IMG/VR virus record: IMGVR_UViG_2522572023_000008
Direction: 5' to 3' (one strand)
Origin: a virus
Taxonomy: Duplodnaviria; Heunggongvirae; Uroviricota; Caudoviricetes
Length of the DNA: 46,931 nt
The position numbers were made by a program. Positions 27,001 to 30,000 of the stretch are shown here, piece after piece. Positions within the stretch are counted from its first letter, which is position 1; each line of letters opens with the position of its first letter.

Positions 27001-30000
27001 GTCTGTCATGAAGGGCACAAAATAAACGCCCTCACTCTCCCTGTTTTTATACCCGCCGTACACGGTGTCGTACTGGGTAGCGTATGTATTTTTCCAGTAA
27101 TACGTCGTGTCACCACAAATCCACGGCACATCTGCAGCACTGCCACCATGGCACTGCGCGTTAAACACGGAGAGGTCAGCACGAAACTGTGTCAGCATGG
27201 CTGTAAACAGCGCAGGTTGCTGTGCGTGGGTGGCGGCGCTCATGTCAAACTCTCCCTGCATCCAGCACACCGCCAGCAACACATTTTTCGGGTTCTTCTG
27301 TAATGCAGCTTTAGTGCGCGCAATCAGGTCCTGATATAACGGTTTACCCACACCCCAGCGTGCCGAATCCTGGCTGGCCCCCGTGTCCGCACTGAATGTC
27401 CCCTCCGCGCCCTGGGTGAATGCCGAACCACCACGACAGCATGGTACCAGCAGGATCCCCGCGTTATTCGGGATATACGGGAGCAGTTTTTTGGCAATAT
27501 GTAAGCCCTGGCCGACACAGCCGTACTGCCCTTTGCTCAGGTCTGCCTTCGGATGATTCAGCGTACTCATATCCTGCACATCATGCAGGCAGTGGTCGGC
27601 CGGAATAATATCGTTATATCTGCAGGCAGCCCCACCCGGCGTCACTGTACTGCGGCGCGCCAGCTGTTTAATGCGCGGATCCGGAGCATCGTATGAATCC
27701 GGCAGCGGAAGCCCTTCACCGTAAGCCATGGCATTGGACTGCCCGGCCAGTACGATGACGTAGTACCAATCCGGCTCAGATGAAGGGCCGACCTGTGGCT
27801 CTCCTTCAATAGCCACCGCCTGCATCAGTGTGTACGGCGTAATGGCAACCGGTCCGCCGTATGGCTGCCAGCCCTCTTTCAGTTTGTGTGTCAGCTTTTC
27901 CGCAAGGTCTGACGGCGACGCCGCCCTGACAACATCATAATGTTTAAATGTCATTATTCCTCCCGGCCGGGATAGTGTATTAAATCAGATATGGAGTGGG
28001 CTGTAGTCCGGAAGCCTGAATGACACACGGGGACTACAGCCCAAGAAATGAAAAAAGGCCACGCAGTTGCGCAGCCTGATAAACCCTGGTTAAAATCCAC
28101 ACGATAACAACACAACAATATCAGTATCTCATGCTATTGCCCGAACCCATTCGGGCATTTTTTACCCATAAAAAATGCCCCTCCGGAGAGGGGCATGTTT
28201 GCATGCACATTCTTTTTCTTGCATGGTGCCGGGTGCCTCCCGGTGAATTCAGTATCAGCACCTGAATCCGCGATTATCACATATACCTGCTTGCTGATTG
28301 CCCCTCCGCACAGGGGGATTCACCATGCAGTAGTATTTTTAATAAACAGTAAACAAAAAAATCAAGCATTATGCAGGCTGTTTCTTTTTATCACCGGCCA
28401 CAGCAATACCACAATGCCGCAGACCAGCACCCCATCCGCCAGCACCGACATGATTCTGCTGGTGAAATCCACCATCACCACCAGAAACAGCAGGAGTGCA
28501 GCCACAGCCAGGCGCAGTTTTACCGTCACTGGTGATTCTCCAGACGAAGACCCAGAACACCGGCAATCTCTTCCAGCACCTTGCGCTCTTCCGGCTCAAT
28601 TTCGCCGTCTGCCTCCGCAATGGCCACCGCCACATCCAGCACATCTTCCGCTTCACGCGTATCGTGTTTCACATCCTCAATCTCACGTAACGCCGCACGA
28701 CGACCAATTTTAAAGTTCGTATCCAGCTGACCGATAATGGTTGCGCTAATCGCATTAATTTCCGAGGTAAACGCAGACAACGCAGGCTGATTACGTAAGA
28801 CCTGTTCGATCTTCGCTTTCTCGGATGCCTCGCATTCACCATCTGCATAGGCCACCAGGTATGCAGCGTTAATCACCGCCTGTGCCAGATCGCGTTTCTC
28901 AAACTTTTTAATTTCCGCTGCCGCTCTGCGGGTTTTCTTTTTGAAGATTCCAAACATCGTGACGTTCCTTTGGGTGGGTGAGCCAACGCCCGGGAGCGAT
29001 CTGCCCACAGAGAAAGTCACACTGACCACTCCGTAAGCTCACCCCCGAAAGGCTCTGTGGTTGATATGCGCCGGGCGTGGCGCAGATACAAAAAAGGCCC
29101 GCCGAAGCGAGCCTGGAAAATAAGTGTGGCGCGTTGTACTGGAGTCGAACCAGTGACCGATTGCTTAGAAGGCAATTGCTCTGTCCGGCTGAGCTAACAA
29201 CGCAGAATACCGATAATGGACCGCCATCGGGGACCCGGCCCCGCACCAACAACCCTGTTATGGTGTCGTCTGCTCTTCCTGATAAGCTAATGGCGGTATG
29301 TGATGGTGGCCCTTGCTGGATTTGAACCAGCGACCTGGCGATTATGAGTCGCTCGCTCTCACCACTGAGCTAAAGGGCCGGGCCAAAAAATAATAATCAG
29401 ATGAAAATCAATAATCAAGCCCTTGCCTGGATACATATCTGTCCGGCGGGAAGCCATAATAGCGGTGAAATACAGAAATAAAGTAGGACCAGCTTGAATA
29501 ACCGCATTTTTCTGCTACAGCCTGTCCATATCCATGCCGGGAACATAACATATTTACAGCAACACGCATCCGCTCTTCCAGCAACAAGCGACTGAACATG
29601 CCCCCTTCATTTTTCAGTTTTGTCTTTAACAAACTCTCACTCATATGCAACTGTAGAGCAATCGCACCAAGCGTCCAGCTTGCTGATATATCTGTCTGAA
29701 TTATCGCCCTGACTTTGGCACTTATGCTGGATAAACATCCACTTAAAAACAATGACATCCGTTCATCTGTTTCAAACAGAGACAGGCAGGCCATCATAAG
29801 AAACATATCCGTGACCTCTCCGGAAAATCCCTGGCTGGTAATTAAAGCCGCAGCCAACGCAGGATTGTTGGGTTCCAGCAACAGGTAAAGCGGAATGTCA
29901 GTCAGACGAGTCCTCGTCAGCTTATGCTGACTTTCCAGATATTGACTTACGACGGATTCGCTTATATCGACAATTTTAACTTTGCCATAATGCATAAGGA

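Follow-up and report, generated by a model that had tools for sequence, protein, structure and literature searches.

The prophage sequence IMGVR_UViG_2522572023_000008 (46,931 nucleotides, referred to here in its entirety as the window) carries two adjoining genes, tciA and tciB, in an interval (positions 27955-29379) that corresponds to the cargo slot of Shiga toxin (Stx)-converting phages, where the toxin genes stxAB reside. The tciA gene encodes a 143-amino-acid protein of the TerB family, tciB encodes a 55-amino-acid two-helix membrane peptide of the DUF3927 family, and the pair is preceded by a structured leader RNA of approximately 125 nucleotides. The protein pair in the slot is already known and constitutes routine annotated prophage cargo; only the leader RNA may be new. 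We judge it somewhat likelier than otherwise that the interval is best explained, overall, as the known tciAB cargo in the stx slot, forming a leader-gated, membrane-tethered TerB module. The interval matches part of a lambdoid prophage in Escherichia coli O145:H28 RM13516 (NZ_CP006262.1 2447975-2449399) with 100% identity. All features that had been pointed out from the sequence alone (hereafter the initial annotation) were recovered, on the minus strand: the Q-like gene, the tRNA genes, the TerB open reading frame (ORF), the GTGA-coupled 55-codon ORF, nanS-p and the lysis genes.

The position of the pair is defined by comparison with phage 933W. BLAST reveals 88% identity from ileZ through argO to the terminator that follows, ending at window position 29079, and no similarity across 29078-28347. 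Homology resumes at 28346, ~15 nucleotides past the tciB stop codon, and extends with 74% identity through the small RNA (sRNA) gene STnc100 into nanS-p, for which nucleotide identity to the 933W homologue is 71-74%. Because the similarity is lost after the tRNA terminator and regained so soon after tciB, tciAB occupies the stxAB slot, such that 732 bp in the window stand in place of the 1,369 bp of 933W that hold stxA2B2. The initial annotation had likened the order of the late region to the cargo-slot layout of Stx phages, and the two breakpoints, which flank the pair, bear out this likeness.

Gene order on the minus strand runs from the Q-like gene through genes for a 65-amino-acid hypothetical protein and an AraC-like regulator, the tRNA with anticodon CAU, an argN remnant, tRNA-Arg (UCU), a terminator, tciA and tciB to ~400 bp lacking ORFs, after which come nanS-p and the genes for holin, YdfR, lysozyme and Rz. 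The Q-like gene forms the upstream edge of the late-operon cargo region and nanS-p the downstream edge of the slot. All elements of the pR' moron-slot layout of Stx phages are found, with Q, ileZ/argO and a terminator upstream of the cargo and convergent sRNAs, nanS-p and lysis genes downstream. This locus, which follows the Q-antiterminated PR', has been described as a site of moron insertion, and in the Sakai prophages Sp3, 4, 5, 9, 10, 11, 15 and 17 a moron coding sequence is likewise followed by convergent sRNAs (Tree et al. 2014; PMC4104026). Flanks equal to within a few nucleotides surround stx2AB in 933W and Sp5, where ileZ-(argN)-argO and the terminator lie on one side and STnc100 with a convergent short sRNA, nanS-p and lysis genes lie on the other. 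The window differs from those phages in its cargo, in having AgvB rather than AsxR as the convergent sRNA, and in the AraC-like regulator gene between Q and the tRNAs. In short, an Stx-phage-like lambdoid prophage here carries tciA-tciB, instead of stxAB, in its standard moron slot.

The hairpin that follows the tRNAs (Table 1) is the final element held in common with 933W before the cargo, and its 933W homologue is annotated as the 'terminator upstream of the stx genes'. It also bounds the tciAB cassette on the left in three settings with different upstream neighbors. In phage JLK-2012 the same cassette, beginning at the same terminator, lies behind tRNA-Asn/Thr/Gly, and in PPyecE_EH1910 it lies behind a block composed of a regulator, a toxin-antitoxin pair and a methylase.

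Profile searches assign both proteins to families, with scores above the cut-off for TerB (60.5 bits), in line with the TerB-like label of the initial annotation, as well as for DUF3927 (62.3 bits). TciA matches Pfam TerB (PF05099; cut-off 24.4, E 2.5e-16) over residues 25-137 and PHROG 632 at 2.8e-68, and a profile of its relatives matches Klebsiella TerB (PDB 2JXU) over residues 12-137 with an E value of 7.7e-18. An acidic (A)DGxxxxxE motif is present twice, as D39/G40/E46 and D117/G118/E124, and these residues are invariant or at least 90% conserved among 16 sequences of 27-98% identity. AlphaFold2 models the TerB part of a natural frameshift fusion, P0124, as eight helices with predicted local distance difference test (pLDDT) values of 85-93. 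The top Foldseek match of the model is 2H5N, which we take to be a TerB-like structure; the match has a probability of 1.00, but an E value of 0.016 and a template-modeling (TM) score of 0.58-0.63. The C-terminal half of TciA is also weakly similar to the TerB-like part of the membrane-anchored protein DjlA. As modeled, the tciA product is predicted to be soluble and all-helical, with a TerB domain that contains both of the conserved acidic DGxxxxxE motifs. P0124 and a second sequence, P0185, were considered as true TerB-DUF3927 gene fusions and rejected, as they look like frameshift artefacts.

TciB matches Pfam DUF3927 with an E value of 4.3e-17 (cut-off 25 bits) and PHROG 1470, 'TciB-like inhibition of cell division or resistance to colicin', at 4e-30. 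Its hydropathy profile has two maxima, at residues ~7-20 and ~33-47, and the corresponding helices are joined by a conserved polar DFTS...ADG segment. Conserved acidic residues also fall in the part of the peptide that is predicted to be embedded in the membrane. No match for TciB was found in PADLOC-DB 2.0.

The GTG start codon of tciB overlaps the TGA stop codon of tciA as GTGA (28526-28529). To place this overlap in context, we fetched 34 genomic loci with TciA relatives of 34-99% identity, from genera that include Franconibacter, Pantoea, Pseudescherichia, Buttiauxella, Serratia, Pectobacterium, Citrobacter, Erwinia and Pseudomonas, of which 33 could be assessed. A hydrophobic ORF of 49-79 codons adjoins or overlaps the tciA stop codon in 29 of these 33. 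Its start lies between -26 and +3 nucleotides from that stop, mostly within 8 nucleotides and as far as 26 nucleotides upstream in two loci, and most of these small ORFs contain the motif DFT(S/G)...(A/S)DG...WP. Coupled ORFs of the tciB type are present as well in P1, P7, the N4-like phage Pollock, JLK-2012, Klebsiella phage 5 LV-2017 and the Erwinia jumbo phage ChrisDB. The initial annotation had described the pair as a translationally coupled operon, a description that agrees with the overlap in the window and with the coupled ORF at the other loci.

Both genes appear to be maintained by selection on their products. The proportion of synonymous differences (pS) exceeds that of nonsynonymous differences (pN) in all 24 pairwise comparisons with the window copy of tciB, so that the 55-codon ORF, whose conservation the initial annotation had left as a point on which it might fail, is conserved at homologous loci with synonymous-biased substitutions. 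The ratio of nonsynonymous to synonymous substitution rates (dN/dS) is below 1 in all comparisons of both genes, at 0.10-0.51 for tciB and 0.01-0.36 for tciA, with values for tciA of 0.01-0.06 among close relatives at dS 0.3-0.7. Across Enterobacterales and unrelated phage types, these sequence comparisons show tciA and tciB to be real genes that are inherited together, keep their stop and start codons coupled and evolve under purifying selection.

The initial annotation did not recognize the pair as a described module, and on this point it was mistaken. The genes are named tciA and tciB in P1, the proteins correspond to PHROGs 632 and 1470, and RefSeq annotates them, at the same coordinates, as 'tellurite resistance TerB family protein' and 'DUF3927 family protein'. 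GenBank phage records use the names TciA and TciB, and records of prophages from enterohaemorrhagic E. coli (EHEC) use 'TciA/TerB-like protein'. At a coverage of at least 80%, tciAB is found in 802 of 5,426 complete E. coli genomes (~15%), and genomes with any match contain a median of 4 such places and at most 10. With up to ten matching places in EHEC genomes, tciAB ranks among the most frequent cargoes of the locus at which Shiga toxin is found elsewhere. The pair is also found in N4-like, jumbo, Klebsiella and other phages, some of them strictly virulent.

In P1, according to the GenBank annotation and later papers from which we take the naming, tciA, tciB and tciC follow one another with 1-nucleotide overlaps between tRNA-Asn/Thr and tRNA-Ile2. 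The arrangement in the window resembles P1 tciABC and its P7 counterpart (terB-upf69.4-upf69.6) in that the stop codon of a TerB gene overlaps the start codon of the DUF3927 gene behind it, and in that phage tRNA genes, including tRNA-Ile2 (CAU), lie alongside. TciA is 42-51% identical to the P1/P7 proteins (42% over the full length for P1), and the TciB core is 58% identical. In contrast to P1, the window has no tciC (tblastn of P1 TciC against the window yields only chance matches, E at least 1), and STnc100 fills the space; moreover, the genes lie in a lambdoid late operon rather than in the P1 ban region. Location in or beside phage tRNA clusters recurs among otherwise unrelated carriers of tciAB, as seen in P1, P7, JLK-2012, ChrisDB and the window. 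Among temperate and virulent carriers alike, the usual neighbors of the pair are tRNA genes or further genes of accessory type.

The leader RNA occupies the stretch that separates the terminator from the start codon of tciA. When the 200 nucleotides 5' of tciA are aligned across genera, the leader is conserved with compensatory changes even though the upstream flanks differ. Searches with a hidden Markov model (HMM) and then a covariance model, applied to IMG/VR loci fetched with a loose pattern, yielded 93 covariance-model matches in 86 sources, and none in 81 control loci (646 kb) having only matches to the loose pattern or a distant tciA. The same models find no leader in P1, P7 or Pollock, and all further counts refer to the 93 copies. 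Roughly half of them, class 1, lie in front of tciA. The remaining copies (class 2 and intermediates) precede antirepressor-type genes with P22_AR_N, KilA-N, KilAC/ANT or Rha domains, and also HNH endonuclease genes and one gene for a periplasmic binding protein. 933W itself has a copy (locus L006, 7211-7363); its P22_AR_N ant gene lies between R and Rz. Prophage records of the PPompW type (e.g., LC567818.1 15679-15727) match only the first 49 nucleotides of the leader, with 98% identity, and in LC567818.1 the match overlaps an annotated IS110-family element, ISEc20, which suggests that the insertion sequence entered a leader.

Covariation defines the architecture of the leader (Table 1). Its 5' hairpin, H1, has a loop that pairs with a segment just 5' of the 3' strand of helix P3, and this loop pairing, PK1, is found as CGCCCGG/CCGGGCG, CGCUCGG/CUGAGCG, UCUCACG/UGUGAGA, UCGCACG/UGUGCGA and UCACACG/UGUGUGA. 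Similar replacement is evident in P2, which takes the forms CCACAGAG/CUCUGUGG, CUCAGAA/UUCUGAG, CCAAGAA/UUCUUGG, CCGUAGAG/CUCUACGG and GAAAGU/ACUUUC, and in P3, for which the variants are GGGUGAGC/GCUCACCC, GGAUGA-CCUUG/CAAGG-UCAUC and GAAAUGAGCC/GGCUCAUUUC. A near-invariant CCUUU, the anti-Shine-Dalgarno (anti-SD) segment, pairs with the Shine-Dalgarno (SD) sequence AAAGG. Because P3 crosses both P2 and PK1, the leader would form either a double pseudoknot or a two-state switch. The frequency of G-U pairs identifies the tciA sense strand as the strand of the RNA.

The proposed pairs are far better matched than shifted controls. Standard pairs fill 93.7% of cells in the class 1 alignment (33 sequences) and 96.7% in that of class 2 (28 sequences), versus 37-51% and 30-51%, respectively, when the 3' partner is slid by 1-3 columns. 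In class 1, changes on both sides of a pair number 11 versus 3.6+/-1.3 in shuffled alignments (0/500 shuffles), and the covariation score is 0.157 versus 0.111 (0/500). For class 2 the score is 0.099 versus 0.047 (0/500), and both-side changes number 4 versus 2.9+/-0.8 (89/500). Pairs were counted on separate MAFFT alignments of the two classes, together with alignment-free duplex enumeration, because in the joint covariance-model alignment (A6) the class 2 sequences have the 3' strand of P3 displaced by one column.

For the window copy, a nested fold composed of H1, the anti-SD:SD helix, P3 and P4 has a free energy of -32.7 kcal/mol, and a nested fold with PK1, P2 and P4, in which the SD is free, has one of -28.8 kcal/mol. 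The minimum-free-energy (MFE) fold of the single sequence (-58.4 kcal/mol, z = -2.4) differs from the covariation-supported helices and was set aside. Because pseudoknots are beyond its model, RNAalifold returns none of the proposed helices other than H1, P3 and anti-SD. On the strength of the pairing statistics, the leader is a covariation-supported, pseudoknotted RNA that is predicted to be able to pair with the Shine-Dalgarno sequence.

Cis-acting control of translation initiation is already familiar for homing-endonuclease genes, from leaders that sequester the ribosome-binding site such as that of T4 I-TevI, and for antirepressor genes, from c4/sar antisense regulation of ant. The leader described here differs from these in being a multi-helix, pseudoknotted RNA of ~125 nucleotides that is common to TerB, antirepressor and HNH genes. 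It matches neither c4/sar nor related Rfam families; on the tciA-sense strand no match was found in Rfam 15 at gathering thresholds, and at E values up to 10 only the terminator hairpin and chance matches appear. Literature searches likewise returned nothing relevant to it. Tentatively, we regard the leader as representing a class of cis-regulatory, pseudoknotted RNA that has not been described before; as a portable 'moron leader', it would gate translation through exposure or pairing of the SD. Its signal could be a phage or host factor, or the origin of the transcript (read-through versus local start). A ligand-binding riboswitch or a self-processing RNA is less likely. If confirmed, the leader would represent a general means of controlling phage accessory genes that undergo horizontal exchange, and a new family for RNA databases.

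Table 1. Coordinates of the tciAB interval, its leader RNA and flanking genes in the window.
Feature	Position	Strand	Basis or remark
Structured leader RNA of tciA	28958-29083	minus	between terminator and ATG; conserved across genera
H1, 5' hairpin	29083-29079/29072-29068	minus	covariation
PK1, H1 loop with segment 5' of P3 3' strand	29077-29071 with 28993-28987	minus	
P2	29060-29053 with 29012-29005	minus	covariation
Anti-SD with SD	29052-29048 with 28971-28967	minus	near-invariant
P3	29044-29036 with 28984-28976	minus	covariation
P4, variable hairpin	29027-29023/29019-29015	minus	
tciA	28526-28957	minus	ATG start; Pfam TerB; RefSeq same coordinates
tciB	28362-28529	minus	GTG start; RefSeq same coordinates
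tRNA, anticodon CAU, ileZ type (tRNA-Ile2)	29304-29379	minus	ARAGORN; Rfam tRNA 72.5 bits
argN remnant (probable)	29204-29303	minus	aligns to 933W argN; 100 nucleotides between both tRNAs
tRNA-Arg (UCU), argO type	29127-29203	minus	ARAGORN; Rfam 68.1 bits; aligned to 933W argO
Intrinsic-terminator-like hairpin after tRNAs	29114-29095	minus	8-bp stem (6 G-C) and T-run
STnc100 sRNA gene	28164-28354	minus	Rfam RF02076, 143.9 bits (gathering score 47)
Terminator hairpin of STnc100	28196-28175	minus	
AgvB anti-GcvB sRNA gene	28102-28163	plus	Rfam RF02702, 96.5 bits (gathering score 56), full-length match
Second terminator-like hairpin, ahead of nanS-p	28077-28056	minus	9-bp stem (6 G-C) and T-run
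Q-like late antiterminator gene	30681-31247	minus	Pfam PF06576 (3.7e-105) and PF06530 (5.9e-08), DUF1133/Phage_antitermQ; PHROG 753 'anti-termination protein Q-like'
AraC-family regulator gene	29408-30121	minus	between Q and tRNAs
nanS-p-type esterase gene	26104-27954	minus	Pfam DUF1737, SASA and DUF6645; PHROG 143; RefSeq 'SASA family carbohydrate esterase'

As for what the pair does, it is possible, rather than probable, that TciA held by TciB binds a cation or senses a perturbation and so keeps the membrane of the infected cell intact during lytic growth, with the proteins made from the late transcript under control of the leader. TciB would anchor TciA on the cytoplasmic side of the inner membrane, the two forming a complex of roughly 1:1 stoichiometry, and the TerB domain, through its acidic motifs, would bind a divalent cation or sense membrane perturbation. 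The threats against which the module would preserve the membrane during lytic development might include DNA entry by superinfecting phages, pore-forming colicins and abortive-infection pores of the host. In this prophage, tciAB would be made mainly from Q-antiterminated late transcripts, its translation gated by the leader; a scan of the leader region between the terminator and tciA revealed no sigma-70 consensus promoter.

The link to the membrane is drawn from the hydropathy of TciB, from the weak similarity of TciA to DjlA and from loci at which another membrane protein repeatedly takes the place of TciB. At two loci from Pseudomonas and Paracoccus and in Pseudomonas phage AF (L021, L035 and L044), a different protein of 67-73 amino acids overlaps the TerB stop codon by 4-8 nucleotides, with one N-terminal membrane helix, a Cys/Trp-rich tail and the motif C.WYGYQ.ER...Y.P.VGC. 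In Vibrio phage D520 (locus L045, 1501-3081), DUF3927 is absent and the gene next after that for TerB encodes a Na+/Ca2+ exchanger (PF01699, 1.4e-27). A role in the lytic phase is suggested by the presence of the pair in virulent phages and in lytic transcription units, namely the late operon here, the P1 ban region, where tciAB lies downstream of C1-repressed ban promoters, and the early-middle region of Pollock.

The theme of membrane defense derives from the ter operon, which has been linked to phage and colicin resistance, and from the anti-phage systems Shango, Bunzi and Dionysus, which carry TerB proteins and for which membrane surveillance has been proposed (bioRxiv 10.1101/2025.09.30.679545). 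TciA shares with TerB of terZABCDE the Pfam family and duplicated acidic motif, and its predicted fold is likewise helical. Unlike that protein, the phage-borne TciA is accompanied solely by a 55-amino-acid membrane peptide; terA, terC, terD, terE and terZ are all absent beside tciA in 17 kb of RefSeq annotation around the pair. With SngA of Shango, BnzA of Bunzi and DinB of Dionysus, tciAB has in common the combination of a TerB domain with membrane proteins. It differs from these systems in having no helicase, ATPase or pore-forming partner and in being encoded by phages, virulent ones included. Because TerB domains have recently been found in several anti-phage systems, tciAB, as a minimal, phage-borne and putatively membrane-tethered TerB module, offers a tractable entry point to TerB biochemistry.

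Several observations weigh against this proposal. The initial annotation had allowed that the pair might prove to be a widespread, annotated gene set of known function. It is widespread and annotated, but its 'function' is a name given by homology only, in P1 in 2004, and that name lists three alternative phenotypes. Experimental work on the function of TciA or TciB was not found in the literature, and papers on N4-like or Pseudomonas phages that carry a TerB gene call its role unknown (PMC8421299 among them). In a genome-wide CRISPR interference screen, knock-down of P1 tciA, tciB or tciC had no effect on plaques and the genes were scored non-essential (PMC10695390). Aside from a weak match of TciA to PDC-S48 (E 0.0033, 36 residues), no defense-system model in PADLOC-DB 2.0 matches the pair. 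TciB is not strictly a partner of TciA, since phage 434 carries TciB without TciA in its Q-to-nanS slot (L005, 2112-3344). There it is flanked by two other small or medium-sized membrane proteins with no Pfam match, one of which (247 amino acids) was considered as TerB-like and rejected (hhalign probability 0.2%). A lone, shortened TciB is also present in the Q-to-nanS slot of vB_EcoS-813R8 (L008, 3696-3812). Finally, when the P0124 fusion is used as a proxy for the complex, AlphaFold2 gives the TciB part a pLDDT of ~50 and no confident docking, and the TciA-TciB complex is thus proposed from gene coupling only.

Among other explanations, the one that fares best, which we nonetheless consider unlikely, is that the pair serves phage replication rather than exclusion, either as a helper in ion or membrane homeostasis that buffers Ca2+, Mn2+ or Zn2+ or as a dominant-negative decoy of ter, Shango, Bunzi or Dionysus. 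Buffering is consistent with the conserved acidic motifs and with the exchanger gene beside TerB in Vibrio phages, an association that is confined to a single phage group; terC is reported to contribute to zinc resistance (PMC12054061). A decoy would suit the role of TerB proteins as components of host defense systems, and either function would agree with the presence of the pair in strictly virulent phages. The P1 knock-downs count against both, as no plating defect was observed on the laboratory host, which may lack the relevant defense.

That the pair modulates the timing of lysis, by tuning holin triggering or collapse of the proton-motive force, is improbable. The pair does sit just upstream of the lysis cassette, in this prophage and its relatives it shares the late transcript with nanS-p, holin, endolysin and spanin, and TciB, as a small two-helix membrane peptide, resembles antiholins and holin modulators. 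In P1, N4-like and Erwinia jumbo phages, however, the pair lies far from the lysis genes, and the same slot elsewhere holds unrelated cargo such as stx.

Slightly less probable still is a membrane-acting toxin with its neutralizer, or an abortive-infection pair, in which TciB would depolarize the membrane and TciA restrain it; a membrane-acting toxin was among the roles that the initial annotation had suggested, together with stress or superinfection exclusion. The carriage of TciB without TciA in phage 434 and vB_EcoS-813R8 would be lethal if TciA were the antidote, virulent carriers gain nothing from killing the host early, and PADLOC gives no match. TciA is, moreover, by far the more conserved partner. 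These points are set against the small, hydrophobic nature of TciB with its membrane-embedded acidic residues, the tight translational coupling, and the Hok/Sok module in the same prophage, which shows that such cargo is tolerated. A literal tellurite resistance determinant, as the RefSeq and PHROG product names and the homology to ter-operon TerB would have it, is very improbable, given that terC, terD, terE and terZ do not accompany the gene, that the P1 name lists its alternative phenotypes by homology, and that the authors describing PMBT3, citing earlier work in which other ter genes were needed for activity, suspect that their lone phage terB confers no resistance (PMC8421299).

The ~400 bp between tciB and nanS-p, which fall inside the interval, contain two known sRNA genes in convergent orientation. 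STnc100 begins 8 nucleotides past the tciB stop codon; in Stx2 phages, the STnc100 element sits 75 nucleotides 3' of stx2 (PMC12370729). AgvB converges with it and has a plus-strand terminator at 28138-28157; its function as an anti-GcvB RNA was described by Tree et al. 2014 (PMC4104026). Minus-strand hairpins resembling terminators are abundant in the region, with 12 sites versus 3.7 expected. The initial annotation regarded the pair as insulated by terminators. The hairpins are indeed present, but two of them are the sRNA terminators of STnc100 and AgvB, as is apparent from the genes found there.

Upstream of the cargo, the tRNA gene with anticodon CAU is base-for-base the same as ileZ of 933W and is labeled tRNA-Ile by RefSeq. 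Between this gene and tRNA-Arg, the segment that aligns to 933W argN retains the acceptor stem and T-arm, while the region of the anticodon arm has diverged. Because of this divergence, and because neither ARAGORN nor the Rfam tRNA model calls a tRNA there, the segment is probably a decayed argN gene.

The AraC-like regulator is nearest to YdeO/GadX (NCBIfam 2e-30, under the cut-off; PHROG 1450). Presumably it resembles the prophage-encoded regulators Psr and PatE, which act on acid resistance and type III secretion in EHEC. Elsewhere the prophage also carries the Hok/Gef toxin with Sok antisense RNA (33525-33849, minus strand, 113.5 bits), a stress protein of the YgiW/YdeI family (33061-33405, minus strand) and the DicF sRNA (41412-41463, plus strand, 76.7 bits).

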